Shown: positions 4,011 to 64,000, counted from the first letter of the stretch. The stretch is DNA of 64,000 nucleotides from Chloroflexota bacterium (GCA_013112575.1 JABFGG010000003.1:152898-216897), one strand, 5' to 3'. Translations and numbers: made by a program. Notes: generated from the sequence alone by a model not told the origin.

Positions 4011-4139
4011 TATCCTCCTTAGCGATCTTGTGCTTAATCATTTGCACGTTGGCCCAGGCATTGCCGGACCAACGTGCAGTGATGCCCAATGCTGCCGGGC
4101 AGGTTTGAATTGTTAAGTGCTGTGTTCAGTCAGTGGCTG

Positions 4140-4973: not shown

Positions 4974-5162
4974 AGAATACTCCGTTTCACAAATCGAACA
5001 ACCGTTTGGTTGCGGGGCAAGTGCCCCAAATTTCGAAGCGGGATTCTATCACATATCAAATAAAGAGAATAAGTCGTGGGTACTGGCATTTTCAGGTGTT
5101 TTTAATGTTTCTGTAAAACGGAATCCAATTAATTACGCCTGAGGGAGGAATGAGGTTCAAGC

Positions 5163-6083: not shown

Positions 6084-6156
6084 TGTGGCTCCCAGACTGT
6101 TGAAATCTCGTGAAGCTTATCACTGAATCAGCAGAAAAAACCGGGCATGGTGTAAT

Positions 6157-6174
6157 ATTACCCAAATGGGTAAT
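6157..6174. promoter_or_regulatory. 18-bp perfect palindrome ATTACCCA-AA-TGGGTAAT in the divergent cysK / PNPOx-family promoter region
   Basis: Read directly: the 8-bp arms are exact reverse complements. Located 74 bp from the cysK start and 33 bp from the 6207 start. Confidence 0.35.
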
Positions 6175-6206
6175 CACCCATATATCTAAACCTATTGGAG
6201 AGATAG

Positions 6207-6770: not shown

Positions 6771-6841
6771 AGGCTTATCGTTCCGCGACCAGCGATACAA
6801 TTTTGCGTATAAGCTAGTAGATAAACGAACGGAGAAATAAG

Positions 6842-7249
6842 ATGACTGAAGACAAGGACATTGTACAAGAAGTAGACGAAGAATTGGACGCGCTGGACCA
6901 AGAAATGGATAGTGGTGATTCGGCCTGGGATTGGGGCGGATCGAATTCATGGATCTGGGGTTTGGCCTTAATCGCGGTTGGCGGATTGCTGCTGTTAGGC
7001 AATTTCACTGATTTTAATTTCATTGATGTGAGTAACTGGTGGGCCATTTTTATCCTGGTGCCGGGCATCTCAATGCTGGCAAACGCATTTAGTGCCTCAC
7101 GGCGTGGTCGTTCCGGGGGTGGACAGGCCATTTGGGGTGGTTTCCTGGTGTTGCTGGCGCTGTCGTTCTTCCTCAATATCTCTTTCGCCCTGATCTGGCC
7201 GGTGTTCCTGATTCTGGCCGGGGCAGGCTTGTTGTTCCGGGCTTTCTAG
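6842..7249 (+). CDS. small membrane protein, LiaI/LiaF-like TM region
   Basis: Acidic N-terminus followed by four hydrophobic helices (WGLALIAVGGLLLLGNF...). Confidence 0.45.
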   Translation: MTEDKDIVQEVDEELDALDQEMDSGDSAWDWGGSNSWIWGLALIAVGGLLLLGNFTDFNFIDVSNWWAIFILVPGISMLANAFSASRRGRSGGGQAIWGGFLVLLALSFFLNISFALIWPVFLILAGAGLLFRAF

Positions 7250-7272
7250 TTCCGGCTTTAGACTGATAGTGA

Positions 7273-7303
7273 AGAAACCAACCTGTTCAGGTTGGTTTCT
7301 TTT
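7273..7303. terminator. bidirectional rho-independent terminator between convergent genes
   Basis: 12-bp perfect stem AGAAACCAACCT/AGGTTGGTTTCT, loop GTTC, T-run. Confidence 0.65.
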
Positions 7304-7343
7304 AATTATTCACGCAAAGTATGCCAAGGGCGCGAAGTTTAAT

Positions 7344-7874
7344 CTAGACGTGGCGGGCGGCTAGCTCCGTGACAAAGCTATTGACCTCGAGGTCGATCTT
7401 GCGGCTGGCATCTCTATAATTCTCGCTGGTGTATTCCAGGGGCGAAAAGACGCGGTCAAAATCTATCCCGAATAGACTGGCATCTGTCACAAATGAGCCA
7501 GAGCGTACCTGCAAACCAACGTCATCGGGCAGACGCAACTTTACGTTGGTGACGAAGCCCATATAACGGAGATGGGTTTCGCCTTCGGGTATGTCCGCGC
7601 TGGTGAGGTCCAGGTCAGCGTCACCAACGAAGAACGAGGTTTCTTCATCATTGACCTGCCAGTCGCCATAGCGGTCGATCTCGCCAATGAAACGAAAACG
7701 CACGTTGGTGCCATCGGGGGCGAAGTTGGGGCGCAGGATGATCCACAGACCACCAGCCATCAAAGCTAAGGGCCAAAAGATGGCCCAGGTGTCGAGGTTG
7801 AACAGTCGGGCGGTAAATAGCACCACACCAAGAAGGATAAGAGCAATGCCAAGGAAAGAGCCGGGATTACGCAT
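7344..7874 (-). CDS. LiaF-like (DUF2154) cell-envelope stress protein
   Basis: Two N-terminal TM helices. C-terminal GDADLDLTSADIPEGETHL...VKLRLPDDVGLQV matches the pattern of the LiaF C-terminal domain. Confidence 0.5.
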   Translation of the reverse strand: MRNPGSFLGIALILLGVVLFTARLFNLDTWAIFWPLALMAGGLWIILRPNFAPDGTNVRFRFIGEIDRYGDWQVNDEETSFFVGDADLDLTSADIPEGETHLRYMGFVTNVKLRLPDDVGLQVRSGSFVTDASLFGIDFDRVFSPLEYTSENYRDASRKIDLEVNSFVTELAARHV

Positions 7875-7959
7875 GGGGGAGACTCCAGAAGGTTAGTCGG
7901 ATTTAGTAGGAAGATACTTGTACTTATTGTATCCAATAAGAGGGTGCTTTGGAAATTTG

Positions 7960-8937
7960 TTAAGGGATGGGAAGGACCCCATCACTGACTTTGCATTGGA
8001 TGGCTTCAGTGGGAGTTGGGATTATTGTTTCATCAATAAAAGTATTACCGTGTTCATTCAAGGCTTCGAAAGGCCAAAGAGGTCTGACGAGCACTTCATA
8101 GGTTAGATTTCCTTGACTATAAATGCCGTTCTTGATTTCTTTTGCCAGCCAATCAGTAACAAAATCCCCTTCGATAATTATTGGATATGAATCAATAATT
8201 GGAATGCCCTCTATAAACTCTTCGACCTCTGGGTGTTGCTCTCTACGAATCTGAACTAATTGATCTAAAGACATTGTGTTAATGGGCCAGGCTTGGCTAT
8301 TTATTTCTCCATAAGGAGTTTGCAACCACAGAATCAATTTTTCAGGTTGGTAAGGCTCTAGACCTATGGGCGAGAAGGATGCAAGAAGCTTGTATGTATC
8401 CGCTATGGCAGGCAATACGACGGGGGGCGGAGAGGGCCAGAGCCATTCATCAAGATCAAAATCCCAAACAAACCTTTCAAGGGCTTGATTCCATGAGGTA
8501 TTTGATCGCCAGCTGTCTACGGCAATGTGGGTATATTGAGATCCCTCAAAGGGGGGACGATATGTAGTGTAGTCATAATCAAAATATCCAACTTGGTCAA
8601 TTGTGTTAAGCAATTTACAGGTTTCTTCTCTAGATAAGGCCTTAGTTAATGGTTTAAATGTAAACCATTCTGATTGCGGGTTGGAAATAATTAGTTGCTT
8701 GTCCCCAAATAAGATTAGTTCTGGAGGAAAGTCATAGGAGCCACCACCATCACCAGGAGATTTATCTACAAATATTTGAATTGATTGAGGCACCCATGTG
8801 TGATCTTGTAAAGGAGGCACGAGTGTACTTGTCGGTGAAGGTGTAAGTAGGCTATGTTTAAAAGCTTCGTTGGTCAACTCAAAAGGAAAAGGTGTTTTTG
8901 GAGTGGGAGTGTGACTTGGGATGCTGCCGGCATGCAC
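7960..8937 (-). CDS. hypothetical protein; probably the body of a frameshifted lipoprotein gene (see findings)
   Basis: 325-aa ORF with no signal peptide. Its frame stays open upstream to 9120 without a start codon. The adjacent 8874..9143 ORF supplies a lipoprotein signal in another frame. Confidence 0.45.
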   Translation of the reverse strand: MHAGSIPSHTPTPKTPFPFELTNEAFKHSLLTPSPTSTLVPPLQDHTWVPQSIQIFVDKSPGDGGGSYDFPPELILFGDKQLIISNPQSEWFTFKPLTKALSREETCKLLNTIDQVGYFDYDYTTYRPPFEGSQYTHIAVDSWRSNTSWNQALERFVWDFDLDEWLWPSPPPVVLPAIADTYKLLASFSPIGLEPYQPEKLILWLQTPYGEINSQAWPINTMSLDQLVQIRREQHPEVEEFIEGIPIIDSYPIIIEGDFVTDWLAKEIKNGIYSQGNLTYEVLVRPLWPFEALNEHGNTFIDETIIPTPTEAIQCKVSDGVLPIP

Positions 8938-9163
8938 GCCAACGATATACGGCCAATCTGTTGTACTCGAAGGGGTAAAGAGGGTCGATAGTAGAAGTTG
9001 GTGAGGGGATGGTTGTGGCTGAAGGGACCTGTGGGTGTATAAGTAAGCGTAAGGATTTGAGGACTTGGGGGTGAATTGGTACAGCCTGATTGAAAAACCA
9101 TGGTTGCGAAGACCCCCAGATTAATTATCTTCTTACAGGGCATATTCCTCCCAACGATAGGTC

Positions 9164-44762: not shown

Positions 44763-44815
44763 TTGTAAAGGTCTTGACAGATACTTGATTAAATAGAACG
44801 TTTGTGCATAATTAA
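44763..44815 (+). promoter_or_regulatory. 53-bp promoter element, copy 1 (TTGACA ... TTGATT-16 nt-TGCATAAT)
   Basis: 49/53 identical to 59400-59452. TTGATT at 44785-44790, CATAAT at 44807-44812, preceded by TG. Confidence 0.55.
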
Positions 44816-46638: not shown

Positions 46639-48672
46639 ATGGGTAAAAAACAGGATCTGAGCAAAAGACGAATGGAAGCTTTGAGGCGCGGGGACCTCGA
46701 AACGGCGGATAAGCTCTTACGGGAGTTGATGCCGCGGCAGCGCAGAGATCAGGAGGCGCATGATCTGGAAAAAGAGGCATTACGGGCAAGACGCAGTAAA
46801 AAGCTGCGGGACAGGAACACCTATGATGTGGTGGCCGGGGACAGCTTCTTTTCGGTGGCAAGTGAGGTGTTAGGGGATGCGCGGCTGGCGGGGGCATTAC
46901 TTGAGGCGAACCCGAATGTTTACGTGCTGCGTCCGGGGATGGTGTTGGACCTGCCGGAATTGGACACTGAAGCAGAAGAACCACCGTTGTTCTCGGAGGA
47001 GGCTTACCGCGATGCGCTGATCTCACAGGAGTTGGTGGATGCGATTGGAGGCGATCCGAGTGGGGCGCGTGTGGGGGATGAAGACGTGGAGATAGAAGCG
47101 GATGAGGAATTTGTGCAGGACAGCCAGGAGGCCTTGGCGGGTCTGGGAATGGAGGAAGAAGCCCTGGCAGAAGCGGTGGCAGACCTGCTGATAAACCTGG
47201 GGTATACCGATGTGCCAGTACCCAAAGTGATGGAGAAGCCTGCCGCACAAGTAGAAGAGGATATTGACGAAGAAACGTTTGAGGGGCCAGCCCTTGAGAC
47301 CGAAGAGTACCTAGGGGCAGATGTAAGTTTGGAGGATGGGCCGCAACAAGATGAAACCCCACCGTCACCAGATGACGAAGGAAAGCGCGGAACTAGGAAG
47401 GTAGAAGGTAAGGGGACGTCAGAACCGGAACCGGCGGTTGTTCCGACAGAGGAAGTAGAGCCGACCGAAGTTGTCAACGAGCCCCTGCCCAGCTATGAGG
47501 AACTGGTGATCGCTGAGGAGACGAACTGGCCGCAATGGGAGAATGCCTTAGAGAACTCAGGCATCGAATTGAGGGATAATGAGGGTGAACTGAATCTTGA
47601 GGAGATCAGCACTTTTATTGCGGAAGATATTGAAGTAAATAAAGAACGTTATGCCCAGGAATTGGGAATGACAGTTGATGAGTTGGCAGAGGTTTCAAAA
47701 GAAAGAGTAGAGATTTGGCTGGAGGCAGCTGAATTGCATGGCCAGTTAGATGTTTTTAACACCTCATTATTACTGAAGCAGAATGATCAAGATATTTTTG
47801 GAGTCAATATTGATGTCATGGTTGATGGGGCCCCGATGGGTTTGGATGCTTACATCGAAACTCAGAACGATGCAGATATTGAATCGACTCGGCTGAATTT
47901 TTCAATAGCGTTGGTAAATATGGGTTTTGCTTTGTCAGGTGTTTCTCCTGATTATGATGATCCGGGAGAGGTATTTCGGGATGTATTCGGTGATGTAACA
48001 ATCAAATTTGACAGCAAATATAGTCAGGGTTGGGGGTGCAAGACTAACTCGAGTCGAGAGGTCGTGTGTGGGAGTGGTGGGTTGAGTTACAGTATTCCGC
48101 AATATGGATATTTTGGTTTATATCCCGAAGTAATCATCCATGAATTGGGCCATGTTTTGCATAGTAGAATAGCGAGAAACTTGGCAATAGGTTTAGGACG
48201 AACCCCGAATAACGAAGATAAAGAACTGGAACAGATCTACAAGGACAAATTAAGCTTATTTGACCCCTATATTCGTCTCGGTAGCACGAGTTTATACTTA
48301 GACGAAGATTACACAGATGGTGAAGGAATTGTTTTCGCTGGGCCAGGAATTGCTGAGCGGAGTGAGTTAGGATGGCAGTATACGGATAGGGATGGTTACC
48401 TGTCAGATTTACCTTATCAGATACATGGTTATGAATTATTTCCGCTACCTAAAACTCCTGAAGAACGAGAAGATTATGATGATCCTAATAGCCCGAATGA
48501 AAGATTTGCAGATATGTTTTTAAACTGGGTACTAGACTCATTTGACTACACTGACTCTGCTCAAGGAGCTGGCCAAGCCATGTATGATTGGGTTGATGAA
48601 AATGCTGCTGATTTTGTGTATTTTGCATCTCACACGTATTCAGAAGAATGGGACAATAGAATTGAGAATTGA
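46639..48672 (+). CDS. LysM-domain protein with acidic linker and C-terminal HExxH metallopeptidase-like domain
   Basis: Basic N-terminus. LysM (YDVVAGDSFFSVASEVLGD...LRPGMVLDLP). A long Asp/Glu-rich middle. VIIHELGHVLH near the C-terminus. No signal peptide. Confidence 0.7.
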   Translation: MGKKQDLSKRRMEALRRGDLETADKLLRELMPRQRRDQEAHDLEKEALRARRSKKLRDRNTYDVVAGDSFFSVASEVLGDARLAGALLEANPNVYVLRPGMVLDLPELDTEAEEPPLFSEEAYRDALISQELVDAIGGDPSGARVGDEDVEIEADEEFVQDSQEALAGLGMEEEALAEAVADLLINLGYTDVPVPKVMEKPAAQVEEDIDEETFEGPALETEEYLGADVSLEDGPQQDETPPSPDDEGKRGTRKVEGKGTSEPEPAVVPTEEVEPTEVVNEPLPSYEELVIAEETNWPQWENALENSGIELRDNEGELNLEEISTFIAEDIEVNKERYAQELGMTVDELAEVSKERVEIWLEAAELHGQLDVFNTSLLLKQNDQDIFGVNIDVMVDGAPMGLDAYIETQNDADIESTRLNFSIALVNMGFALSGVSPDYDDPGEVFRDVFGDVTIKFDSKYSQGWGCKTNSSREVVCGSGGLSYSIPQYGYFGLYPEVIIHELGHVLHSRIARNLAIGLGRTPNNEDKELEQIYKDKLSLFDPYIRLGSTSLYLDEDYTDGEGIVFAGPGIAERSELGWQYTDRDGYLSDLPYQIHGYELFPLPKTPEEREDYDDPNSPNERFADMFLNWVLDSFDYTDSAQGAGQAMYDWVDENAADFVYFASHTYSEEWDNRIEN

Positions 48673-48694: not shown

Positions 48695-49672
48695 ATGAGA
48701 AATGACAAGGGTCTTTTTCAACGAATTGGAGGAACAGTTATCGGAAGTTTAGTAAAGGTGCTGTTGCTTATCTTTTTTTTACTAGTCGTAATCTCCTTCG
48801 TGAGTTGTTCACCGACGAATAGATACGATCCAAGATTGCTCATAGAGAATGGTCTCCAAATGAGTTGGTCACCTTCTGGGAAGGAAATTGCATATGTTGC
48901 AGATCGTGAGGGCTCTGACACTCATGATCTCTATCTATATGATACTCAGACAGGAAATATTAGCCAGGTTACTGAATTAGATGGCCCTTATGCACCTGCG
49001 TTTCCTAGTTGGTCCCCAAATGGTCAAAAGCTTTCATTTGTCCTTTATTCTGAGGGTTTAGATATTGTCTTATTAGATTTTGGTAAGTTTGACGGAACCC
49101 CACTAGACAGCATTGAATTAAGAGAATTAATTGCAAAAGGGGTCCCACCGACTCAAACTGGAGAGATATATGCCTGGAACGACGACCCCCATTGGTCACC
49201 AGACGGTACAAAGATAGCGTTCATTTCCTGGCTGGAGGAGAATGTTGAAATCTACATAATGGATGAGGAAGGAGACAATGCAATCAAAATTGGAGAACAG
49301 GTTGGAAAAAATTATGAGCCTACTTGGTCACCGGATGGAAATTCGCTTGCTTTTGTATCAGACCGAGACGGAAACCTCGAAATCTATACAGTGAACCTCA
49401 TTAGTTTGGAAGTATCAAGAATAACTAATAGTTCAGAAATAGACCAGTCTCCTGATTGGTCTCCTGATGGGAAATGGCTCGTATTCGAATCGATGAGAAC
49501 AGGGAACTGGGATCTGTTTGCGTTTCACCTAGAGAGTGGGGAGTTGGTGCAACTGACTTTTGATGAGGCGGATGACTATACTGCTGATTGGTCGCCAGAT
49601 GGAAGCTTGATCGGGTTTACGTCTTTGCGATTAGGTGAAGCGGCTTTGTATGTGATCGATGCGCCGGAGTAG
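48695..49672 (+). CDS. TolB-like PD40 beta-propeller lipoprotein 1
   Basis: Lipobox FVSC. Repeated WSPDG/WSPNG blades. Confidence 0.8.
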   Translation: MRNDKGLFQRIGGTVIGSLVKVLLLIFFLLVVISFVSCSPTNRYDPRLLIENGLQMSWSPSGKEIAYVADREGSDTHDLYLYDTQTGNISQVTELDGPYAPAFPSWSPNGQKLSFVLYSEGLDIVLLDFGKFDGTPLDSIELRELIAKGVPPTQTGEIYAWNDDPHWSPDGTKIAFISWLEENVEIYIMDEEGDNAIKIGEQVGKNYEPTWSPDGNSLAFVSDRDGNLEIYTVNLISLEVSRITNSSEIDQSPDWSPDGKWLVFESMRTGNWDLFAFHLESGELVQLTFDEADDYTADWSPDGSLIGFTSLRLGEAALYVIDAPE

Positions 49673-49712
49673 TGTTTAGCAAAGTCGGATTTTCGTCAAA
49701 GGGGTTCTTTAG

Positions 49713-50666
49713 ATGAAATCAATATGGATAGTATTCTTTTGCTTGCTTGTTGTAAGTGGAACCGGATGTGGTTCTAACAACAGAATTCAAGACCGCATTC
49801 GGCTGACAAATAACCTTAGCATAGATATTTTGCCAGACTGGGCACCGGATGGAACACAAATCGCATTTGTACGTAGAGAGGAAGATAATAACAATGCTCA
49901 CCAAGTTTTTGCAGTTCATGTATTGAATCAGATCGAAGAGGAACTCCTCAATAATGAAACCAGTTACAGAATAGATGGACTTGGCTGGTTGCCTGACGGA
50001 GAAGAGATTGCTTTTTTAATATTTGGTGGAGACGTTGGCCCTGCAGTCGGCATACTATCTTATATTCAGGGGGAAATACCACCTCCGAGCATTTTAAAGA
50101 TGGAGGTATTACGCGGTTTGGGCGACCGAGCATTTGTATGGAACTTTGAATGGTCATCAAGTGGGGAAGAAATTGCAATCATACGAAACTATGATGATAG
50201 CATTGCTCCTGGCTTATACACCGTGAAAAGAGATAATACTGAGTTGCAACAAATAACGCAGGGTTACGGAGCCTGGGGGCCAAGTTGGTCTCCAGATGGG
50301 AATAGGATTGTGTTCGAGCATATTGGGGAAATCGATCCGAATGATACTGTGTTTATGTCTGATGAAAATGGAGAAATATACACCATCAAAGTAGATGGAA
50401 CAGAACTTTTCCAAGTGACTAATCACATCGCGAATGACTCTGAGCCTGAATGGTCACCAGCAGGAGATTGGATAGCATTTGTTTCTGAGAGAGATGGAAA
50501 CAAGGAGTTGTATGTAATTCGACCTGATGGTAGGGAACTCACACGACTAACTGAGGAAGAGGCAGACGACTATTCGCCAACCTGGTCGCCAGATGGAACA
50601 CAGATCGCGTTTGTGTCTGAACGGGATGGGAACCCTGAGCTATATATTATGGATGTGCCGGAGTAG
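49713..50666 (+). CDS. TolB-like PD40 beta-propeller lipoprotein 2
   Basis: Lipobox SGTGC. Repeated WSPDG/WAPDG blades. Confidence 0.8.
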   Translation: MKSIWIVFFCLLVVSGTGCGSNNRIQDRIRLTNNLSIDILPDWAPDGTQIAFVRREEDNNNAHQVFAVHVLNQIEEELLNNETSYRIDGLGWLPDGEEIAFLIFGGDVGPAVGILSYIQGEIPPPSILKMEVLRGLGDRAFVWNFEWSSSGEEIAIIRNYDDSIAPGLYTVKRDNTELQQITQGYGAWGPSWSPDGNRIVFEHIGEIDPNDTVFMSDENGEIYTIKVDGTELFQVTNHIANDSEPEWSPAGDWIAFVSERDGNKELYVIRPDGRELTRLTEEEADDYSPTWSPDGTQIAFVSERDGNPELYIMDVPE

Positions 50667-52763: not shown

Positions 52764-54389
52764 ATGGGTGATAAGAATCGAGAGATCGCAGAGTATTACA
52801 AGAAACGAAGAAGAGGGGAACGGGATGATGAAATGCTGGACCGGATCGTGGGGGGAGGGAGGCGACAGCGAAGGGCCAAGGCTGAGGAGAGGGAGGCCAA
52901 ACGGGAGTATCGAAAAAAGCGTAGCCTGTTACAAAATGCGTACACGGTGCAGCTGGGCGATAGCTGGTTCAGCATTGCGGGGAGCGAAATGGGAGACCAG
53001 CGCTATGCAGGAGACCTGGCGAGGGCAAACCCGGGGTTTGACGTATTGAAGCCGGGGACGGTAATCATGCTGCCGCCTGCGGGGGGAGAGGAGACACCTA
53101 TCCTGACATACGAAGATTATGAGATGTTGGAGGGTATTCAGGAAAAGGTGGAAGAGGCACAAGAGCCGCCGGTGACAGCAGCAAACAGCCCAGTCTATGG
53201 TGATCCTGCAGGAATAGAAGCGGAACACGACATGATACAAGCCTATTTGGATAGGCAAGAAGCGGATGAGACTCCTGTAGATGAAGAGGCGAATGGACTG
53301 GAGGAGGAATTCAATGTGGCGGATTATGAGGCGGAGGCGCAAGCGATAGCACAGATGTTGTTGGAGATGCAAGCTTTGCGTGAGCAGGAGGAAGAGGGGT
53401 CAATAAAGGTGGCGGCCCTTGCGCAGGATGTTGTTTTGCAGGAAGAAACGCAAGAGCAAAAAGAAGCAAATGAATTGTTGGATACCTGGTTTCAGACCCA
53501 AGTAGCAGATATGAAAATCCTGGGGCAGGATAATTACCGTGCAATTCATAATGAGTACAAGGCATTACAAAATGGAATTAGCCAGGGTAGCGTTACGCGT
53601 AATGAAATGTTTAGAAGGGTATATGGAACGGAATATGTGCCGACCCCCACACCAACGCCTACAGAGGGATTGCCCCCACCTATTGTAGAAGTACGGCCAT
53701 TAGAAACTGATACACCTGAGCCTATTCTCACACCAGAGCCTATTCGAATACCTACTGCAGAACCTACAGCAGCAAATTGGGTAGAGGTCTTGGAGTCGTA
53801 TGCTCCAATGAATGGGGATGGATTTTTTGTTTCAGGAAATCGTCATGGGACAGAAATACTTAAAGGATTGCATGTGGGTGTTGACATTGCCGCAGATGAC
53901 CGTATTGTTGAGGCCAATGTGGCGGGGAAAGTGTACTTCTTCCAGACCCTCAAGGGTGCTGGAGGAATAATCGAAACAAGAGCCTTTGACCCTGCATTGG
54001 AATACCCTGAAAATGATGATAGTTATGAGGACTTTGGGAATTATGTAGTGCTCGTAAGTGAATTCAACGGTGAGACTTACTATCAAGTCTTTGCTCATTT
54101 AGAGTCATTCAGTCATGATTTTCAGAATGGTGATGAAGTGCCCGCTGGAACTTTATTAGGGGAAATGGGGAAAACAGGCGCTACTGAAGAGTATCATGTC
54201 CATTGGGAGATTCGAACAGAGGACGGAGTCAATATAGATGAAAATGGGGTGATTCGATTTGATATTTTTGAACGGGTTTTAGCGGACGGCACATATCCTA
54301 CCTATTATGCGCAATCAGAGGAAGAGTTAGAGCAGTTTACAATTAACCCATATGATTTCACTAATCTGCTGAATTCTATTGACAATTAA
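52764..54389 (+). CDS. LysM-domain protein with acidic linker and C-terminal M23 peptidase domain
   Basis: Start lies 2 nt after the portal stop. Basic N-terminus. LysM (YTVQLGDSWFSIAGSEMGD...LKPGTVIMLPP). M23 motifs HVGVDIAA and YHVHWEIR. Confidence 0.75.
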   Translation: MGDKNREIAEYYKKRRRGERDDEMLDRIVGGGRRQRRAKAEEREAKREYRKKRSLLQNAYTVQLGDSWFSIAGSEMGDQRYAGDLARANPGFDVLKPGTVIMLPPAGGEETPILTYEDYEMLEGIQEKVEEAQEPPVTAANSPVYGDPAGIEAEHDMIQAYLDRQEADETPVDEEANGLEEEFNVADYEAEAQAIAQMLLEMQALREQEEEGSIKVAALAQDVVLQEETQEQKEANELLDTWFQTQVADMKILGQDNYRAIHNEYKALQNGISQGSVTRNEMFRRVYGTEYVPTPTPTPTEGLPPPIVEVRPLETDTPEPILTPEPIRIPTAEPTAANWVEVLESYAPMNGDGFFVSGNRHGTEILKGLHVGVDIAADDRIVEANVAGKVYFFQTLKGAGGIIETRAFDPALEYPENDDSYEDFGNYVVLVSEFNGETYYQVFAHLESFSHDFQNGDEVPAGTLLGEMGKTGATEEYHVHWEIRTEDGVNIDENGVIRFDIFERVLADGTYPTYYAQSEEELEQFTINPYDFTNLLNSIDN

Positions 54390-54485: not shown

Positions 54486-55136
54486 ATGAATAATATAATC
54501 AAACGTAGAAAAAAGACTGTGGTAATTGTGAGTTTCGCAATACTCATATTGACCGGGTGTCAAAGTGGAATACTCACTGTCCCTACCCAAACTCAGGAGG
54601 TGAAGCCAATATTTGCCCCTGAGCCAACTCTTGAAGGCTCGTGGGCAGGTTTGCCATTCGGCGAGAACTGGGAGCTCAGAGTCGTTGGGGCGGATGAGGA
54701 GCGGGAAAACCCCTGGTTGTATGCTTACTTTGAAGGGCAGGAAGTCCTGGCGAATAGAGATTATGAGGGCTGCGAGTTGACCTATTGGTTTGGTTCTGGG
54801 GAAGGAATAGATGAGTTTGGGGAATTCCCTGAATTCTTTTCTTATATCTCTTTTGAGCAAAAGATAGGAGGAAATGATTTTGGTGTTATTCTCCATCTTT
54901 TAGAAGGAGAACTCGATTATATTAAATATGTCTTTGACTCAAAGATATACGGGGCATCCAACGTATATGAAAATGGATATGTTGGTACTTTGCGTCTTCG
55001 ATTGATCGATACCGAGATCGATCCATGCATCCAAGAAACGAAGTGGCTATTAGCGGAGATAGACCCAAGTGGGATGTATGCGATGCGAGATCCATTCATG
55101 GAATGGAATAATGTGAGGCGATTTGGGGATGAATAA
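54486..55136 (+). CDS. lipoprotein of unknown function, paralog A
   Basis: Lipobox ILTGC. About 90 percent DNA identity to 58398-58952. Confidence 0.6.
   Translation: MNNIIKRRKKTVVIVSFAILILTGCQSGILTVPTQTQEVKPIFAPEPTLEGSWAGLPFGENWELRVVGADEERENPWLYAYFEGQEVLANRDYEGCELTYWFGSGEGIDEFGEFPEFFSYISFEQKIGGNDFGVILHLLEGELDYIKYVFDSKIYGASNVYENGYVGTLRLRLIDTEIDPCIQETKWLLAEIDPSGMYAMRDPFMEWNNVRRFGDE
54618..55136 (+). repeat. direct repeat copy A (about 0.52 kb)
   Basis: Aligns with 58398-58952 at a 3780-bp offset. For example, CCTGAGCCAACTCTTGAAGGCTCGTGGGCAGGTTTGCCA is identical in both. Confidence 0.8.
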
Positions 55137-55175
55137 GGGGGGATTGATGAATAAGCAAGGGATTTTGTAGTTGCG

Positions 55176-56126
55176 ATGAGAACATTGTGGATTCCTGTGA
55201 TTTATTTGCTTTTTGTTGTGGGGTGTAAAGGCTTTTGGGAAGAGCCGCGGCTAGAAGGTCACATAGCGTTCATGATGGAAGTGGAAGGGAATCATGATAT
55301 TTACATCATGGAACCCAATGGGGACAATGTCAGAAGATTAACGGACCACGCTGCTTATGATATGGAACCGGCCCTCTCCCCTGATGGGCAAAAAGTCGTT
55401 TTCGTTTCAGATCGCGATAAGAATTGGGATATCTACATGGTGGATGTGGACGGTAGTAATGTAACCCAGCTTACATTTTCCTCTATGGCGAATGAGAGCT
55501 TTGAAGAGTTTTCAAAAGCACTTGATTGGGGAACACACTGGTCTCCGGATGGGAGATGGATCGCATTCCAGTCGCAGCGAGACGGCAATGCTGAGATATA
55601 CGTAATGCGCTCGGATGGGAGCAATCAAAAAAGATTGACCTTTCACCCAGCGGATGATGCTCTGCCGACATGGTCGCCAGACGGTACACAAATAGGTTTC
55701 ATGTCTGCGAGGCCAAGTCCAGTAGACATCCCTGTGCGGAACTTTGATACCTATCTGTTGGACACAGAAAGTGGTGTAGTCAGTAGAGTAACTGAATATG
55801 TTGGCCTGGATGGGCCTCCTGTATGGTCACCAGATGGAGATCTGATAGCCATCGCCTCGGAACGAGAAGGGGGACAAAGAATATTCATTGTAGATGTCAG
55901 TAGTGGTGAATGGCGATTATTGACGGAGGCGTATGATGAGGGAAATGAAGAGTTTAATGGAGAGCTAGATGGAGAGATACGTGAGGGTTCTGAAAGTTGG
56001 TCACCAGATGGTAATTGGCTGGTGTTAACCTACGGAGCCAAGATCTGTACGATACATAAAGAGGGACATAGTTTGAATTGTATTGAAGGAATAAGTCGTG
56101 CAGCACAGCCTGATTGGGGACCGTGA
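55176..56126 (+). CDS. TolB-like PD40 beta-propeller lipoprotein 3
   Basis: Lipobox VVGC. Repeated SPDG blades. Confidence 0.8.
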   Translation: MRTLWIPVIYLLFVVGCKGFWEEPRLEGHIAFMMEVEGNHDIYIMEPNGDNVRRLTDHAAYDMEPALSPDGQKVVFVSDRDKNWDIYMVDVDGSNVTQLTFSSMANESFEEFSKALDWGTHWSPDGRWIAFQSQRDGNAEIYVMRSDGSNQKRLTFHPADDALPTWSPDGTQIGFMSARPSPVDIPVRNFDTYLLDTESGVVSRVTEYVGLDGPPVWSPDGDLIAIASEREGGQRIFIVDVSSGEWRLLTEAYDEGNEEFNGELDGEIREGSESWSPDGNWLVLTYGAKICTIHKEGHSLNCIEGISRAAQPDWGP

Positions 56127-56219
56127 TTCTTGGGGAAGGAATAGCTAAAGAGACCTTCAAAACTCTTGCAAAATAAGTTTAGATGGCTCTTGAAGCGCGA
56201 AGTGAAAGCAGAGTGATTG

Positions 56220-57149
56220 ATGAGTAATGGGATTTTGATCTATCTAGCGAAACTTTGGTTTTCATTAGTTTTATCTGGTTTGTTTGTGGCTAGCTGTACT
56301 TTCCTTGAATCGACAACAAAACCGGAGGGTCAATTACTATTTGTTGGAGAATCTGAAGATGGGTTAGATTCTGAAGCTTTTGTTTACAATTTAGAAAAAG
56401 AAATCACAAACCAATTGACAGATAATGAAATCACTGATTATTATGCAAAATTTTCGGCTGATGGCAAGCAAATTGCGGTGGCTGCGGGGTTACCAATGCC
56501 GGGAATAGTATTAGTAGATATAGAAACTCAAGACCTTTATCAATTGACTAATGAGGAAACTTTAGTTGGTTATTTATCCTGGTCATCTGATGGGGAGTGG
56601 ATTGCCTTTTCCAAAGATATGGATTCAGGTTCTGTCAATTCAGATATTTATAGAGTAAATATTGACAATAGTACAGTCTCTAAATTCTTTGGCACGGACG
56701 GCAATGACATTCGTGTATTATGGTCACCTGATGGAAACCAAGTAGCATTCAGTTCAAATTTTGAGGCTATTGAATTTAACGACTATGATGTATATGTTTA
56801 CGAGATTGATGATGCTAGTATTGTTAGATTGACATTTGAAGATTCGGATGATGCACCGCTATCCTGGTCTCCAGATGGGAAATACTTAATTGTGTCTTCT
56901 GGAACTGGACTAGATAATCAGGATAAGCGGTTTTTCTTGTTAGAGGTTGATACAGGCAACAAAGAACCTCTAATCGAAGATAAAAATTATTCAACAGGAA
57001 AAAATGAGAATTCTGCAATTTGGTCACCTGATGGGAATTGGATCGCTATAGATGTGGATGGCAGGATTTGTATTATGGATCTGAAGGGTGAACTCTACGA
57101 TTGCTATACGGAAGGATATAAATATATATTGACTGATTGGGGGCCGTGA
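56220..57149 (+). CDS. TolB-like PD40 beta-propeller lipoprotein 4
   Basis: Lipobox FVASC. WSSDG/WSPDG blades. ATG at 56220 (the track uses TTG at 56217). Confidence 0.75.
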   Translation: MSNGILIYLAKLWFSLVLSGLFVASCTFLESTTKPEGQLLFVGESEDGLDSEAFVYNLEKEITNQLTDNEITDYYAKFSADGKQIAVAAGLPMPGIVLVDIETQDLYQLTNEETLVGYLSWSSDGEWIAFSKDMDSGSVNSDIYRVNIDNSTVSKFFGTDGNDIRVLWSPDGNQVAFSSNFEAIEFNDYDVYVYEIDDASIVRLTFEDSDDAPLSWSPDGKYLIVSSGTGLDNQDKRFFLLEVDTGNKEPLIEDKNYSTGKNENSAIWSPDGNWIAIDVDGRICIMDLKGELYDCYTEGYKYILTDWGP

Positions 57150-57182
57150 AATTTGAGTGTCGGGAATGATGAAGTAATAAAA

Positions 57183-58091
57183 ATGGTGAGGCAAATATAT
57201 CTTCTAATACTAGTTTCGTTGATGATGATTGGATGCAGTCGAATTGAAGAGCAGCAAATTGCTTTTCATACGGGTACGGTAATGATCGACGCGCAAATCT
57301 ACGTAGTGGATCTGAATGGACAAAACCTAACACAGCTAACTGACAGCCGCGGCTCCAATTCGGCTCCGACCTGGTCGCCTGATGGCAGCCAGATTGCTTT
57401 TGTGTCCACACGGGACACGAATTTTGAAATCTATATCATGAACGCAGATGGGAGTGGACAATACAATTTCACAGAGAGCCGGGCCCACGATAGGAACCCA
57501 ACGTGGTCTCCTGATGGGAAATGGATCCTCTTTGAATCACGAGTCAATGACACAGAATATCGCGATCTCTATCGTAAGAATGTGGAGACTGGTGAATTAG
57601 TCCAACTGACGGACACTCCAGAACTGGCTGAGTTCCACCCAGCATGGTCAACAGATGGAAGTCAAATCGCATTCTCAGTCCTTAATAAGGACGCTGCTTT
57701 GGATATCTACATCATGGACAAAGATGGAGGTAACGTAGAGCGAATCACTGGGGAGATAAGAAACGTTGACTATCCGATATGGGGAAGATCTGGAGATAAA
57801 ATCTATTTTGTCACATTTGGGTGGTTTGAAGTAGGCAAGCGTGAGATTGTTGCATATGATCTGGAAACAGGTGAATTGAGCCAAATAAGTTTTGATGGTC
57901 AGCCCAAGGGGGAATTTGTGATTACGCCGGATGGTTCAAATATCCTGTTTGAATCCTCCGTGGAGATAGGTCAAAATGAGGATGGGATCAGATTAACGCG
58001 TGGAGCAATCTTTGTCATGAATATTGACGGGACAGGATTGGAATTGCTGCCTATTTATATCAGTGCCAGTGGTGTTGCGTGGAGGCCGTGA
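57183..58091 (+). CDS. TolB-like PD40 beta-propeller lipoprotein 5
   Basis: Lipobox MMIGC. WSPDG/WSTDG blades. The ATG at 57183 is preferred over the TTG at 57153. Confidence 0.75.
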   Translation: MVRQIYLLILVSLMMIGCSRIEEQQIAFHTGTVMIDAQIYVVDLNGQNLTQLTDSRGSNSAPTWSPDGSQIAFVSTRDTNFEIYIMNADGSGQYNFTESRAHDRNPTWSPDGKWILFESRVNDTEYRDLYRKNVETGELVQLTDTPELAEFHPAWSTDGSQIAFSVLNKDAALDIYIMDKDGGNVERITGEIRNVDYPIWGRSGDKIYFVTFGWFEVGKREIVAYDLETGELSQISFDGQPKGEFVITPDGSNILFESSVEIGQNEDGIRLTRGAIFVMNIDGTGLELLPIYISASGVAWRP

Positions 58092-58140
58092 ATAATCTCT
58101 CTGGTTTTTGAAAAACTCGTTAAATTGGTTTAGCTATGAT

Positions 58141-58176
58141 AATTGAGCCTGCATTTACTGATGTAGGCTCAATTTT
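58141..58176 (+). terminator. terminator-like hairpin after PD40 gene 5
   Basis: 10-bp stem AATTGAGCCT/AGGCTCAATT, 14-nt loop, followed by TTAT. A TGgTAAAAT extended -10 follows at 58185-58193. Confidence 0.45.
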
Positions 58177-58244
58177 ATGCCAAATGGTAAAATCTGCCGC
58201 CAAGGTTTGAGAAGAAGAGGGATGGATATTTGTAGGAGCCCTTG

Positions 58245-58952
58245 ATGCTGACTAATTGTTTAAGCGTATTTCGTTCGTATTGCTTCCTTTTTAGCTGCTT
58301 GATATTTGTTGGTGCCTGTAGTTCTGTAGGGAATAGCGGAGAAGAGGGATTAGTTCCTGCTGCTATTCAAACTGAGGAAGCGAAGACAGTATTCGTCCCT
58401 GAGCCAACTCTTGAAGGCTCGTGGGCAGGTTTGCCATACGGTGAAAACTGGGAGCTCAGGGTTGTTGAAGAGGATGAGGAGCGGGTAGACCACGAGTTGT
58501 ATACTTACTTTGGGGAGCGGGCAGACCGCTGGTTGTATGCTTACTTTGAAGGGCAAGAAGTCCTTGTGAATAGAAATCATGATGGCTGCGAGTTGACCTA
58601 TTGGTTTGGTTCGGGGGAAAGAGGAGAAGAGTTTGGGGAAGGCCCTGAATTTCTTTCTACTATCTCTTTTGAGCAAAATTTAGGAGGGAATGATTTTGAT
58701 GTTATTCTCAATCTTGTGGCCGGAAAACTCGATTACATTAAATATATCTTTGACTCAAAGATATACGGAGCATCCAACGTATATGAAAATGGGTATCTTG
58801 GTACTTTGCGACTTCGATTGATCGATACCGAGATCAATCCATGCATCCAAGAAACGAAGTGGCTATTAGCGGAGATAGATCCGAGTGGGATGTATGCGAT
58901 GCGAGATCCATTCATGGAATGGAATAATGTGAGGCGATTTGGGGTTCCATAG
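58245..58952 (+). CDS. lipoprotein of unknown function, paralog B
   Basis: ATG after AGGAG. Lipobox FVGAC. Carries a 15-codon internal duplication relative to paralog A. Confidence 0.6.
   Translation: MLTNCLSVFRSYCFLFSCLIFVGACSSVGNSGEEGLVPAAIQTEEAKTVFVPEPTLEGSWAGLPYGENWELRVVEEDEERVDHELYTYFGERADRWLYAYFEGQEVLVNRNHDGCELTYWFGSGERGEEFGEGPEFLSTISFEQNLGGNDFDVILNLVAGKLDYIKYIFDSKIYGASNVYENGYLGTLRLRLIDTEINPCIQETKWLLAEIDPSGMYAMRDPFMEWNNVRRFGVP
58398..58952 (+). repeat. direct repeat copy B (about 0.55 kb)
   Basis: See copy A. Confidence 0.8.
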
Positions 58953-58962
58953 ATGGGTACAG

Positions 58963-58989
58963 AAAAGGACACCCATGGGTGTCCTTTTT
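58963..58989. terminator. bidirectional terminator between lipoprotein B and rpsU
   Basis: AAAAGGACACCC/GGGTGTCCTTTT palindromic stem with A/T runs on both sides. Confidence 0.75.
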
Positions 58990-59009: not shown

Positions 59010-59213
59010 TCAGCGGCGGCGGTTACGTTGGGAAACACGACGGCGGGCGCGGCGGATGGCTTTCTTCTTTTGAATGCGGCGCTCTTCGGATTTGGAGACG
59101 AACCAGCGTTTGCGGCGGATGTCACCGAGGACCCCGCTGCGGGTAACGGTCTTGCGGAAGCGGCTATAAAGCTGCTGCTGCGACTCGTTGGAGCGTAATT
59201 CTACTTTTGGCAC
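59010..59213 (-). CDS. rpsU: 30S ribosomal protein bS21
   Basis: VPKVELRSNESQQQLYSRFRKTVTRSGVLGDIRRKRWFVSKSEERRIQKKKAIRRARRR fits the S21 pattern. GTG at 59211-59213 lies 7 nt after AAAGGAGGTGA. Confidence 0.85.
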   Translation of the reverse strand: MPKVELRSNESQQQLYSRFRKTVTRSGVLGDIRRKRWFVSKSEERRIQKKKAIRRARRRVSQRNRRR

Positions 59214-59399
59214 TGGAGGTTCACCTCCTTTCATATAAAGCGTAATCGCTTTGTTTTTGGCCTATGAACTGACCGAGCGGGATTATACCTTGGGGAGGGG
59301 AAGTGTACAAGGGCGCGACAATGTGGGGGGAAGATGAAGGTTCGGACACGGACGAGGCATGCCTCGCCCCTACAAAATCTCCAACAATTCCGCGTAGGC

Positions 59400-59452
59400 T
59401 TGTAAAGGTCTTGACAAAGGCTTGATTAAATAGAACATTTGTGCATAATTAA
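59400..59452 (+). promoter_or_regulatory. 53-bp promoter element, copy 2
   Basis: TTGACA at 59411-59416, TTGATT at 59422-59427, CATAAT at 59444-59449. 4 mismatches to copy 1. Confidence 0.55.
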
Positions 59453-59510: not shown

Positions 59511-60116
59511 ATGACAGAAGCACTGGAGAGCGGCGCTAAACGCGAGGAAGCTGGTGAAAACAGCCAGGTTTCGACAGCACAGCGTGACGAGCAAACTTCA
59601 GGTGAAGTTGAACGGCCAAATTCCCCACTGGAAAAGCAGATCGAGGAGCACATTGCTTCGGAGGTGGAGCGACGGTTCCAGAGTGCAAAAGATAAACGGT
59701 GGGCGCAACTTGAGCGGCAGTATGGGGCTTTGAGTGAGTTACAAAAGGCAATGGACGGGCAGGATGAAATTCAAGCCACTGATGACAACTGGGTGATCGA
59801 TAAAGCCCAGGGGTTGTTAAAAATGGCGGGATTGGAAAACGATCCGGAAGTAAGCGCGTTGTTGAGAGAGAAGCCCTATGGTGCGGATAATGATGGCTAC
59901 GTGGCCCTATTGAGTGATCTGACCGAGGTGGTTTTGCGACGCAATAGTCGTGGGCCCACAAATGGGGCGGCGGTGGCCCAGCCAAGTGGTGGCCTGCCTG
60001 TGAATGACCTGAGAGAGGATTATGAGTTACGAAAACGCCAACTCGTTGCGGGGGATGTGAATGCGCTAATGGCTTTGAAACGAGAGTTCCGGGCGAAGGG
60101 TTTGGATATTTTTTAG
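59511..60116 (+). CDS. scaffolding-like protein (acidic, helical), immediately upstream of the capsid gene
   Basis: ATG at 59511 lies 6 nt after AAGGAG. The track start at 59439 lies inside the promoter. Charged helical composition and position support the call. Confidence 0.45.
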   Translation: MTEALESGAKREEAGENSQVSTAQRDEQTSGEVERPNSPLEKQIEEHIASEVERRFQSAKDKRWAQLERQYGALSELQKAMDGQDEIQATDDNWVIDKAQGLLKMAGLENDPEVSALLREKPYGADNDGYVALLSDLTEVVLRRNSRGPTNGAAVAQPSGGLPVNDLREDYELRKRQLVAGDVNALMALKREFRAKGLDIF

Positions 60117-61508: not shown

Positions 61509-62360
61509 ATGGCTTTTACTTTTAGCGATCTTTTACAAGCAGTGTATGCTGAATTGGGGCAATTGCAGACAGGAACAATAAGCAGTGGTTCAACAACAAC
61601 GGTGATAGATGGAGAGATAAGCGGCTGGCATAAAGATGGGGATTGGAAAAACGGGGCAATCTTTATCATTGATGTCGGTGGAGCAGCTCCTGAAGGTGAA
61701 TTTTCCCGAATTAGTGGATACGATGACAGTGCAGGTCAATTTGACTTAGCAACCGCATTAAGTGCGGCAGTGAGCGTGGGGGATAATTATGGATTTGTGT
61801 CGGCATATTATTCACTCGGAACTATGATCGAGTTGGTGAATGCCGGATTACGCACATTGGGTGACATTGCACTCGTAAATACGACAACTCTGGATAGTTC
61901 TGCTGGTCAAAGCGAATATACGGCAACGGTGAATTGGAAACGCCGACGGCCGATGGCGATAGATTATCAGGGTCAACCCGGAGTGAGTGGTAACAACCAA
62001 TGGGTGCGAGTGTACGATTGGGAATACGTGCCCAGCCTGCCGGGTGAAGACGGGCTGATCATATTCAATGAAGAATTACCGGCCGGCCGAGACGTGCGTA
62101 TCTGGTACGTTGACCGGCATCCACGGTTGAGCCAATTTGATGATGTTGTATCAGAGACAATAGCACTGGAGTTAGCTGTGGCGGCAGGGGTAGAGCGTGC
62201 GTTGCGATACCAGAACTCGAGATTGGCAGGGAGTGAACCCTTTCTGGTGCAGAGATGGAATGATGCCAAAGTTGAACTGGCACGGGCACAGGTCAGTTTT
62301 CCCGTGTGGACGCCGCGGCGTGTGGCTAATTTGATGCAAGTGCGGGCAGGGAGCGTATAA
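61509..62360 (+). CDS. phage structural protein of unknown role (head-completion/adaptor position)
   Basis: 283-aa ORF directly after the capsid gene. No recognisable motif. Confidence 0.4.
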   Translation: MAFTFSDLLQAVYAELGQLQTGTISSGSTTTVIDGEISGWHKDGDWKNGAIFIIDVGGAAPEGEFSRISGYDDSAGQFDLATALSAAVSVGDNYGFVSAYYSLGTMIELVNAGLRTLGDIALVNTTTLDSSAGQSEYTATVNWKRRRPMAIDYQGQPGVSGNNQWVRVYDWEYVPSLPGEDGLIIFNEELPAGRDVRIWYVDRHPRLSQFDDVVSETIALELAVAAGVERALRYQNSRLAGSEPFLVQRWNDAKVELARAQVSFPVWTPRRVANLMQVRAGSV

Positions 62361-62362
62361 AA

Positions 62363-64000
62363 ATGGCAATCATTGTTCATCCTGGCGCGCCAAACCCAAC
62401 CCATGAGATCAGTTTGAGCGATGGGGTGCAAACCTGGGGACTTAAATTGGATGGAGGTCCCGGCGCTTTGCAGGAAATCCCCATGACGCCATCTACGCTG
62501 CAATTCACTGGTGGTGGTAGCAAATTTGGAGACTGGGAACCGGGGATGTCCCACATTGAACAGCGTACGTGGGAAGGCGGGCGCGGCCTGGAAGATTTTG
62601 CGGAGGACAGTACGCGTTATTACGACAGCATGAATGCCTGGACGCTGACTCCTGGACGGGTGATGCCAGCGCCGCAATGGCGATTTGCGAAAGGCTTGAG
62701 AGAGAGTTATGAGGAGTTGCCTGGGAATGTGAGTTGGCGAGCTTTGCTAGGGAATGAAAAATATGTTTCAGCAGCTATCACAGTAGGGGAATCTGGTTTT
62801 GATGTACAAGCTGCTTATATCTGGCTAAGACGCAAGGGCTCCCCTGGGGTTTTGACCGCTGCAATATACAGCGATAGTGGCGGAGAACCTGACGAGGCTT
62901 TGCCTAATTCGAGCCAGAGTGTGTCAATTGCAGATGTGGAGGATGTTGTGAGTGTGTTCCAGGTCTTTGATGTTTCTCAAAGCGCTGACCTTGCAGCAGA
63001 TACTGTTTATCACTTAGTAGTCTACGCTAGCGCAAATGATAACGCGGCGAACCATTGGGAAGTAGGTGTTTACACATTTGGGGAAGGGGCGCGAATTTCT
63101 GTAGATGGCATAAGTTGGAGCCAGGCAACATATAGCCTGTATCACCGGATTGTGGATGCCGGTATTAAGCGGCGCATGCATATGTTCGAATTAGAGGGGG
63201 CCTTGTATGCTGTGGATGAGCGTGAGGATGGCTCAGCGGCAAAGCTTTACATGAATGGGGATCGCGGCGTTCAAAATGACTCTGTGAGCGGCAGCCAAAG
63301 TGTCAGCAACCTAGTAGATGAGGATAAAAGTTGGGTAGCAGATAGGTGGGCTGGGGCCTGGGTCAGGATCGTGTCCGGGTCGGGAGAAGGTCAGCAACGA
63401 CTGCTTGAAAGTAACACTGCTGATACGCTGGTGCTTGGCGCTGATTGGGACGTCACACCTGACAACACTACTAATTATGTAATCTATGCAACGGATGAGT
63501 GGGCGGATATCACGCCTGACAGTGGCGATCAATTTTCGGCTCCGGTAAGTTCTGTTGTGGTTTTCAATGATATTGTCGCATTTGCCCAAGGACAAGCTGC
63601 AAATGTTTTGAAAATGAGGTTCAACGCAGCGGCCTCCCCCCCGGCACATGATTTCGATGCAGACTCAAATAAGGCTGACTTACTCTATGTGTTTTATGAT
63701 CCGGATGATGGGGCGCAAGTGTGGCGGGCAAGCAATGATGTAAAAACTGTATCGAGATCCAATCCTACTCTTTGGGGAATAAACTTATCCTTTGCTACAG
63801 CCATTGAGATCGGTGAAGATAGTGCGCCAATTACGCGGCTGGTCGATTACAACTACCAGCTATGGATACTGAAAACTGATAGCGCCTGGGTTATCGATAA
63901 GGATGCGAACGATAATGACATTGCACGAAAGCTGAATCTGGGACTAAGCGCGCTGAGAGATGTGCGGAATGGGCTGGCGGCGACAGTGCAGAAAGGCTTT
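62363..64000 (+). CDS. large phage structural protein, N-terminal 546 codons (continues past window end)
   Basis: I translated the frame from the ATG at 62363 (MAIIVHPGAPNPTHEISLSDG...) to 64000 and found no stop. Not in the ORF track because it is open-ended. Start lies 2 nt after the upstream stop. Confidence 0.55.
   Translation, partial: MAIIVHPGAPNPTHEISLSDGVQTWGLKLDGGPGALQEIPMTPSTLQFTGGGSKFGDWEPGMSHIEQRTWEGGRGLEDFAEDSTRYYDSMNAWTLTPGRVMPAPQWRFAKGLRESYEELPGNVSWRALLGNEKYVSAAITVGESGFDVQAAYIWLRRKGSPGVLTAAIYSDSGGEPDEALPNSSQSVSIADVEDVVSVFQVFDVSQSADLAADTVYHLVVYASANDNAANHWEVGVYTFGEGARISVDGISWSQATYSLYHRIVDAGIKRRMHMFELEGALYAVDEREDGSAAKLYMNGDRGVQNDSVSGSQSVSNLVDEDKSWVADRWAGAWVRIVSGSGEGQQRLLESNTADTLVLGADWDVTPDNTTNYVIYATDEWADITPDSGDQFSAPVSSVVVFNDIVAFAQGQAANVLKMRFNAAASPPAHDFDADSNKADLLYVFYDPDDGAQVWRASNDVKTVSRSNPTLWGINLSFATAIEIGEDSAPITRLVDYNYQLWILKTDSAWVIDKDANDNDIARKLNLGLSALRDVRNGLAATVQKGF

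Follow-up and report, generated by a model that had tools for sequence, protein, structure and literature searches.

The window analysed here is a 64,000-nucleotide stretch of DNA from a Chloroflexota bacterium, whose minus strand carries at 59010-59213 (stop codon included) an open reading frame of 67 amino acids. The product matches the Ribosomal_S21 family of Pfam (PF01165) with an E-value of 7.9e-12 and a score of 45.1 bits against a cut-off of 27, covering profile positions 2-55 of 55, and it also matches PHROG 21469, "ribosomal protein S21". Residues 1-67 are collinear with residues 1-67 of the 71-residue E. coli-type bS21 chain from solved ribosomes, and 23 PDB sequences match the product at E ≤ 1e-3. 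The protein has the size (about 55-75 residues expected) and the basic C-terminus of bS21, with 18 arginines among its 67 residues. The frame is a genuine bS21 gene, correctly delimited, as a preliminary description of this DNA had proposed when it placed a clear rpsU on the opposite strand. The protein is deposited as KAA3643428.1 (locus tags DWQ07) on a 1.05-Mb contig. The features of the locus are collected in Table 1, and related loci are referred to below by number where they have to be told apart.

Table 1. Features of the rpsU locus and of the phage-derived gene cluster surrounding it.
Feature	Position	Strand	Evidence or remarks
53-nt repeat, copy 1	44763..44815	+	73 nt upstream of TerL
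TerL, large terminase subunit, 547 aa	44888..46531	+	PHROG 38, E 2.6e-54; Pfam Terminase_6C
677-aa protein	46639..48672	+	Conserved in L032 (56% identical stretch)
Two PD40 (TolB-like beta-propeller) lipoprotein genes	48695..50666	+	Pfam PD40, E 1e-38 to 4e-42
Portal protein, 634 aa	50857..52761	+	AlphaFold model and Foldseek
541-aa protein, C-terminal M23 peptidase domain	52764..54389	+	Pfam Peptidase_M23, E 3.3e-14
Low-GC cassette: lipoprotein A, three PD40 lipoproteins, lipoprotein B	54486..58952	+	GC3 0.30-0.45
Bidirectional intrinsic terminator	about 58962..58989		Perfect inverted repeat AAAAGGACACCC/GGGUGUCCUUUU with flanking A and T runs
rpsU (bS21), 67 aa	59010..59213	-	
rpsU translation initiation region	59214..59231	-	SD AAAGGAGGTGA and 5-bp hairpin GGAGG-UGAA-CCUCC
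Predicted rpsU promoter, sigma-70 type	59282..59309	-	TGTACA-16 nt-TATAAT, 10/12; consensus match only
53-nt repeat, copy 2; putative promoter/operator of scaffold-capsid operon	59400..59452	+	Core TAGAACATTTGTGCATAAT
Scaffold-like protein, 201 aa from ATG	59511..60116	+	Alternative start TTG 59439
Major capsid protein (MCP), SU10 type, 376 aa	60201..61331	+	Pfam SU10_MCP, E 1.6e-59; PHROG 1328, E 4.5e-52
283-aa structural-module protein	61509..62360	+	Homologues after capsid gene in 13 distinct loci
864-aa conserved protein, 5' part; continues past window end	62363..64000	+	tblastn homologues in related loci

The GTG start codon is the reverse complement of 59211-59213 and follows, at a distance of 7 nt, the Shine-Dalgarno (SD) sequence AAAGGAGGTGA, the reverse complement of 59221-59231. 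An alternative in-frame ATG at 59234 would lengthen the protein to 74 residues. Twelve Anaerolineales rpsU genes have in common the arrangement GAAAGGAGGTGA-N5-7-(T/G)TG, followed by CCnAArGT, and the N-terminus (V/L)PKVxLR, and the extension from ATG 59234 is not conserved among them. This conserved start region rules out the ATG and supports the strong ribosome-binding site and GTG start of the preliminary description. The GGAGG of the SD pairs with a CCUCC directly before the GTG (59214-59228, minus strand), an arrangement seen only in the window and in L032, a locus from a related species. The leader folds with -18.4 kcal/mol (z -2.8), and the predicted hairpin could mask the rpsU SD, which is of interest because bS21 itself acts on SD-anti-SD pairing. 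A search of Rfam gives no match to any RNA family, either across the window or for the rpsU leader. In L006, L012, L017, L034, L038, and L039, a GC-rich hairpin with a U-run lies 30-45 nt upstream of the rpsU SD; this leader element of many Anaerolineales rpsU genes could serve to terminate transcription arriving from upstream or to attenuate it within the leader. At the place equivalent to the predicted rpsU promoter of the window, L032 carries TTTACA-17-TATAAT. Downstream, the perfect terminator hairpin separates rpsU from the convergent lipoprotein gene (stop at 58952) and folds on both strands (-19.2 and -16.6 kcal/mol, z -3.6 and -3.2), bearing out the bidirectional terminator that had been described on this side of the gene.

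The first 44.8 kb of the window are ordinary host chromosome, with genes for MoxR/DUF58, a PALP enzyme, MFS, MerR, an ECF sigma factor, and GGDEF proteins, as well as for alkaline phosphatase, an ABC sugar transporter, and GntR. From 44888 rightward, every gene but rpsU is read from the plus strand; together they form a cluster of about 24 kb, of which lipoprotein cassettes make up about 6.5 kb. TerL and a portal confirmed by its fold lie to the left of rpsU and the SU10-type capsid gene to its right, so that phage genes do stand on both sides, as previously noted. The AlphaFold model of the portal, built from a 28-sequence alignment, has a pLDDT of 71, and its best Foldseek matches, with E-values down to 4e-12, are the portals of Pan3, N4, SU10, and T7. 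Searches of PDB sequences with the portal, 677-aa, and 864-aa proteins return no match, the portal being identified by fold search only; in L013 and L014 its homologue immediately precedes scaffold-MCP. The 677-aa protein also has no Pfam match, its only similarity being a weak endolysin-type match at residues 50-110. Homologues of the scaffold-like protein, 37-80% identical, precede the capsid gene in 17 loci, and this position suggests the scaffold function, the protein having no family match. L002, a metagenome contig from the same organism, carries eight further genes after that for the 864-aa protein, including those for a LamG-domain protein and a GH25 lysozyme that matches a PHROG endolysin; the cluster ends there about 5 kb beyond the window and gives way to PadR and other non-phage genes.

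Both lipoprotein cassettes interrupt the head module and have a GC3 of 0.30-0.45 against about 0.55 elsewhere; the first, at 48695-50666, is a low-GC insert with a GC3 of 0.38. Lipoproteins A and B are paralogues that bracket the second cassette (300 nt at 88%), and short-read assemblies break at this repeat, 95 nt past rpsU. In L024, PD40 genes stand next to the scaffold gene, and in L032 they separate the portal gene from that for the 677-aa protein, so that they may travel with the element.

No integrase, excisionase, recombinase, repressor, replication, or lysogeny gene was found in the 64-kb window, in the 5 kb beyond it, or among a small number of genes following the cluster, and the window contains no att-like repeat and no tRNA. 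Over this span, the cluster lacks the integrase, att repeats, and lysogeny and replication modules of an intact prophage. Its content, namely TerL, portal, scaffold, MCP, tail-side proteins, and GH25 without autonomous functions, is that expected of a domesticated, GTA-like element.

The side of rpsU opposite the terminator is bounded by the second copy of a 53-nt repeat, the duplicated phage promoter of the preliminary description. The two copies are 92% identical, with 0 such matches expected by chance, and in the window they precede TerL as well as the scaffold gene. The core of the repeat corresponds to a motif, (A/T)AGAAC-N4-GT(G/A)C-TATAnT, found in 12 distinct related loci (L010, L012, L013, L019-L024, L027, L029, and L033), each with a single copy that invariably precedes the scaffold gene; in its strict form it is found nowhere else in the approximately 400 kb of DNA examined. 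The window and L032 have a variant of it (CATAAT). An exact 15-mer from the centre of the repeat is present only in same-species contigs, the shorter core motif being the conserved part. We take the motif to resemble the LexA (Cheo) box GAAC-N4-GTTC of Gram-positives and Dehalococcoides, with one base changed and fused to an extended -10 element; judged from this likeness, it could make the capsid operon damage-inducible. A reading of the 53-nt direct repeats as att sites was rejected, since each copy lies 59-73 nt before the first gene of an operon and L032 retains one of them at its scaffold gene.

Relatives of the capsid protein (57-78% identity) were found at 19 loci, in 8 reference genomes and 11 metagenome contigs. 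The protein is at most 32% identical to that of any sequenced phage and has only one distant match (31%) in IMG/VR. The TerL and portal families comprise 325 and 281 homologues, respectively; among the 120 matches listed for each, those with a named source come from Anaerolineales/Chloroflexi MAGs, except for one MAG named "bacterium". Many members of both families lie on contigs of 0.4-4.4 Mb, with TerL and portal usually 2-13 genes apart by locus tag. The genes are distributed in relatives over separate islands of three kinds: TerL-portal, portal-scaffold-MCP, and scaffold-MCP-tail genes. In L033, host genes are followed by rpsU, by a seven-gene module (scaffold, capsid, 283-aa, and 864-aa genes and three small genes), and by host genes again. 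L012, L010, and L017 are built similarly, and the host genes beyond rpsU are TldD/PmbA and FTHFS in L012, a P-type ATPase in L010, and TPR and pentapeptide genes in L017, with glyoxalase, CAT, and Tat genes also among those beyond rpsU in these four loci. L013 has portal, scaffold, and capsid genes only, between FeoB/CN-hydrolase and permease genes, and L040, a genome of 4.43 Mb, has TerL, two GGDEF genes, portal, and an MFS transporter gene, with no capsid gene within 10 kb. L032 has the gene order of the window and shares its right-flank gene. Comparison of the window with L032 shows a saturated dS and a dN of 0.05-0.2, for a dN/dS of about 0.03. The cluster thus combines conservation across the host clade with intact genes under purifying selection, as in GTA-like elements.

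Three more distant contigs (L015, L025, and L026; capsid identity 58-59%) look like real phages, and none of them contains an S21 gene. Just upstream of the scaffold gene, L015 encodes a protein of 2004 aa (2969-8983) and L025 one of 2176 aa (1911-8441), the former with a portal gene upstream of the giant gene. These proteins of 2000-2176 aa recall the giant virion proteins of N4-like phages, and the Anaerolineales chromosomal clusters are without them.

For S21, TerL, and portal of L033 (GCA_020444145.1, locus tags KQH61), NCBI lists pairs of accessions whose numbers differ by exactly 507 in each case, the contigs concerned measuring 569 kb and 749 kb. The two accessions of its S21 (P0059) were rejected as evidence for two rpsU copies in one MAG; because all three genes show the same offset, the whole region is present twice, as either a real duplication or redundant MAG contigs.

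The preliminary description did not foresee that the neighbourhood of rpsU and the capsid operon recurs in several lineages. In the window, L032, L012, and L033, rpsU is divergent from the scaffold gene, with 180-520 bp between them. In L010 it lies within about 2 kb of the scaffold gene, inverted and with an amine oxidase gene between, and in L017 it lies at a similar distance with an ADP-ribosylglycohydrolase gene between. The adjacency is therefore present in five independent lineages (window/L032, L012, L033, L010, and L017), which are scattered over the capsid tree and differ in all other flanks. Look-ups with S21, which are unbiased in this respect, recovered it in 2 of 7 independent cases (P0011 and P0059), and look-ups with the capsid protein found it as well. 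No adjacent S21 was found in five other informative ingroup loci (L013, L014, L016, L020, and L022), which make up half of those informative. The capsid and S21 trees agree in outline, the window group going with the L010/L033 group and L012 and L017 standing apart. Ancestral synteny kept by several lineages, presumably without function, is the reading we prefer for the rpsU-scaffold adjacency. The adjacency appears to persist more than would be expected from neutral synteny, despite local inversion or gene insertion. In L036, a 415-aa neighbour of rpsU has weak tape-measure matches; it was set aside as unrelated to the M23 protein of the window.

Whose S21 this is can be judged from the other copies. 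The best S21 homologues listed all come from Anaerolineales/Chloroflexi, with 70-83% identity, and the closest outside the window's own clade (83%) is that of L005, which lies in a plain host context. Plain host neighbourhoods also surround S21 in L006-8 and L036, an rpsU-infA-pyrD-PFOR arrangement is found in L034/35 and L038/39, and the position of rpsU varies across Anaerolineales rather than being conserved. In the identity matrix and neighbor-joining tree, which have little resolution at 67 aa, capsid-adjacent and host-context copies interleave: one group unites L012 (adjacent), L006 (host), and L017 (near), another L033 (adjacent), L010 (near), and L036 (host), and a third the window, L032, and L005 (host). 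The capsid-adjacent S21 of L012 is closest to the host-context S21 of L006, at 88% identity in the core. Across the 12 genes compared, capsid-adjacent and host-context rpsU have the same initiation region of SD and TTG/GTG. S21 of the window's type was found neither in INPHARED (50,697 phage genomes) nor in IMG/VR (2.9 million contigs). Among the best 120 S21 matches listed, 20 of whose NCBI entries were checked by name and accession, no second rpsU from the window's assembly appears, which is weak negative evidence. The gene is presumably the only rpsU of its genome.

These comparisons do not favour a virus-encoded bS21, a possibility that the preliminary description had raised and for which it had suggested an S21 phylogeny. 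[quoted passage not shown] Its product is nevertheless a typical Anaerolineales S21 with no clade apart from host bS21, as far as a low-resolution tree of 67 aa can tell, and no viral contig carries its type. Only in the window and L032 do phage-derived genes flank rpsU to left and right, the far side being plain host DNA in four other lineages, and the hallmark genes on the two sides do not form one mobile replicating unit. The housekeeping rpsU-infA copies (L034, L035, L038, and L039), which are 72-76% identical to the window S21 in the core, share with it the family, length, basic C-terminus, SD, and TTG/GTG start; the window gene differs in that no infA follows it and in standing alone between the lipoprotein cassette and the capsid operon.

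Codon usage was a further comparison suggested at the outset. In rpsU, 18 of 18 Arg codons are CGC or CGT, and CGY makes up 81% of Arg codons in host minus-strand genes, 56% in host plus-strand genes, and 29% in phage-like genes, so that rpsU is indeed host-like. A positive plus-strand GC skew runs across the whole window, whatever the gene orientation, and confounds comparison between strands: G3/(G3+C3) is 0.60 in plus-strand and 0.31 in minus-strand genes. Since this strand-linked skew largely accounts for the contrast between rpsU and the phage-like genes, Arg codon usage was dropped as a decisive discriminator and kept only as consistent with a host origin. Synonymous divergence between the window and L032 is 0.25 for rpsU and 0.66-0.81 for neighbouring genes. 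Such low divergence is as expected of a highly expressed gene, and it points to strong constraint at the level of codons or RNA, or to rpsU having been exchanged more recently.

Taken together, these results make it probable, in our judgement, that 59010-59213 is the host's own rpsU beside a fragmented, probably domesticated podovirus-type set of head genes. The other option of the preliminary description, in which the host's copy stands amid the phage genes of a fragmented or domesticated element, fits a cluster without an integration, replication, or lysogeny module whose relatives are separate islands. The absence of mobility genes, the scattered islands in relatives, and purifying selection make the phage-derived set look like a long-resident, non-autonomous, and probably domesticated element rather than a prophage, and one that may well have been inherited vertically. 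Under this reading, rpsU would be a stand-alone monocistronic gene with its own sigma-70-type promoter, translated from a strong SD and GTG, its transcription ending at the hairpin that it would share with the convergent lipoprotein gene. The product would serve as an exchangeable 30S platform protein that aids mRNA-16S pairing at initiation. The gene would sit in a gap of the phage-derived set, with TerL, portal, and the M23 protein to its left and scaffold, SU10-type capsid, the 283-aa and 864-aa proteins, and GH25 to its right. The set itself would be an old resident of Anaerolineales chromosomes that cannot excise and is maintained by purifying selection. It would consist of several modules, broken up by low-GC lipoprotein cassettes and host genes, and a conserved promoter would drive it. 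Some points would fit less well. The 29% CGY among Arg codons of the phage-like genes, against 56% in host genes of the same strand, sits awkwardly with a very long residence. By analogy, moreover, a reverse-strand rpsU in a TerL/portal/capsid region has the exact geometry of bS21 phages (PMC9723584).

Were the cluster instead a live 24-kb temperate prophage, its S21 would be a moron taking over host translation in lytic growth. The genes for TerL, portal, scaffold, capsid, tail-like proteins, and GH25 are without exception intact and point the same way, the codon usage of the phage-like genes is unlike that of host genes, and the related species of L032 has the same gene order. Such a phage would have to do without integrase, excisionase, repressor, and replication genes and without att-like ends, in a window that has no tRNA, and its sole long direct repeat, the promoter, would bracket just half of its genes. 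The scattered islands of relatives could not excise together, the lipoprotein cassettes (about 6.5 kb) interrupt the head module, and the capsid has the remoteness from sequenced phages and IMG/VR contigs described above; we consider an active phage very improbable. Repeated integration of related phages beside rpsU, with the present clusters as independent decayed remnants, would explain the recurrent adjacency amid otherwise unrelated flanks, conserved housekeeping genes being common phage attachment targets. However, no locus contains an integrase or att repeats, and the junction falls at the 5' side of rpsU and at the promoter of the scaffold gene, a point midway within the head module where attP is not normally located. 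Independent decay, moreover, would not leave the same intact genes at a dN/dS of about 0.03, and the broad outlines of the S21 and capsid trees coincide, all of which makes an integration hot spot highly unlikely.

Harder to set aside, though still unlikely in our view, is a bS21 gene that came from a bS21-carrying ancestral phage or by early capture and is functionally part of the phage-derived element. Its adjacency would then have been kept because bS21 biases ribosomes to the SD-led late mRNAs of the element during particle making, and the gene may be an extra copy or a replacement of the original host rpsU. The recurrence in five lineages, obtained from both S21 and capsid look-ups, and the back-to-back promoter region of just 180-520 bp speak for this explanation, and it has precedents. 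In bS21 phages of Bacteroidetes, the gene is encoded in reverse orientation amid those for TerL, portal, and capsid, and its expression is late; phage bS21 clusters apart from bacterial bS21 and sits in complete viral genomes among phage protein families (Chen et al. 2022, PMC9723584). Pelagiphage HTVC008M encodes bS21, and phage bS21 enters ribosomes (Mizuno et al. 2019, PMC6375957). In Francisella tularensis, bS21 paralogues are reported to alter which mRNAs get translated (PMC9578407, PMC13374519), which is the mechanism that an element-linked bS21 needs. Here, however, nothing points to a second copy or to divergence of the capsid-adjacent one; in contrast to the phage proteins, the window S21 is indistinguishable from host-context copies, down to the initiation region of its gene, forms no separate clade, and has no counterpart of its type on viral contigs in INPHARED or IMG/VR, and the element around it is not a virus genome. 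S21 is also missing from the five ingroup loci named above and from all three phage-like outgroups, and the predicted housekeeping-type rpsU promoter, about 100 bp from the capsid promoter, is without the conserved AGAAC motif. A more far-reaching version, which we hold to be quite improbable, would have a bS21-carrying podovirus domesticated early in Anaerolineales, with bS21 and the scaffold-capsid operon inherited as a unit and the phage-derived bS21 being, or having replaced, the rpsU of the cell. The back-to-back promoters would then couple ribosome composition to the making of GTA-like particles by a multi-locus element under the AGAAC-N4-GTGC operator, possibly bound by LexA.

Among known systems, the element around rpsU can be compared with two. 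GTAs of the RcGTA type and other domesticated head-tail clusters have genes for structure, packaging, and lysis alone, all oriented alike and without replication or integration genes, and these clusters occupy more than one locus in several genomes, are conserved across the host clade, and are under purifying selection. The window element matches them in gene content, orientation, splitting, and conservation. Unlike the siphovirus-like RcGTA, it is podovirus-like, with a portal and capsid of the SU10/N4/T7 type, and its codon usage is not host-like. Its likeness to SU10/N4-like podoviruses consists of the SU10_MCP match of the capsid and the matches of the portal model to Pan3, N4, and SU10, whereas it is without the giant protein and any early or replication genes. 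A full-text literature search returned nothing specific on GTA in Chloroflexota.

Taken alone, the rpsU of the window is an ordinary rpsU, and its genomic context is the more interesting part. Flanked by phage hallmarks, a ribosomal protein gene is readily mistaken for an auxiliary gene of a virus, and this one would fall within the calls of prophage finders. The podovirus-type head genes found across Anaerolineales would be a candidate domesticated element in a phylum without any described, and the linkage of rpsU to the capsid operon bears on whether a bS21-capsid linkage, known from real phages, outlives the virus itself.
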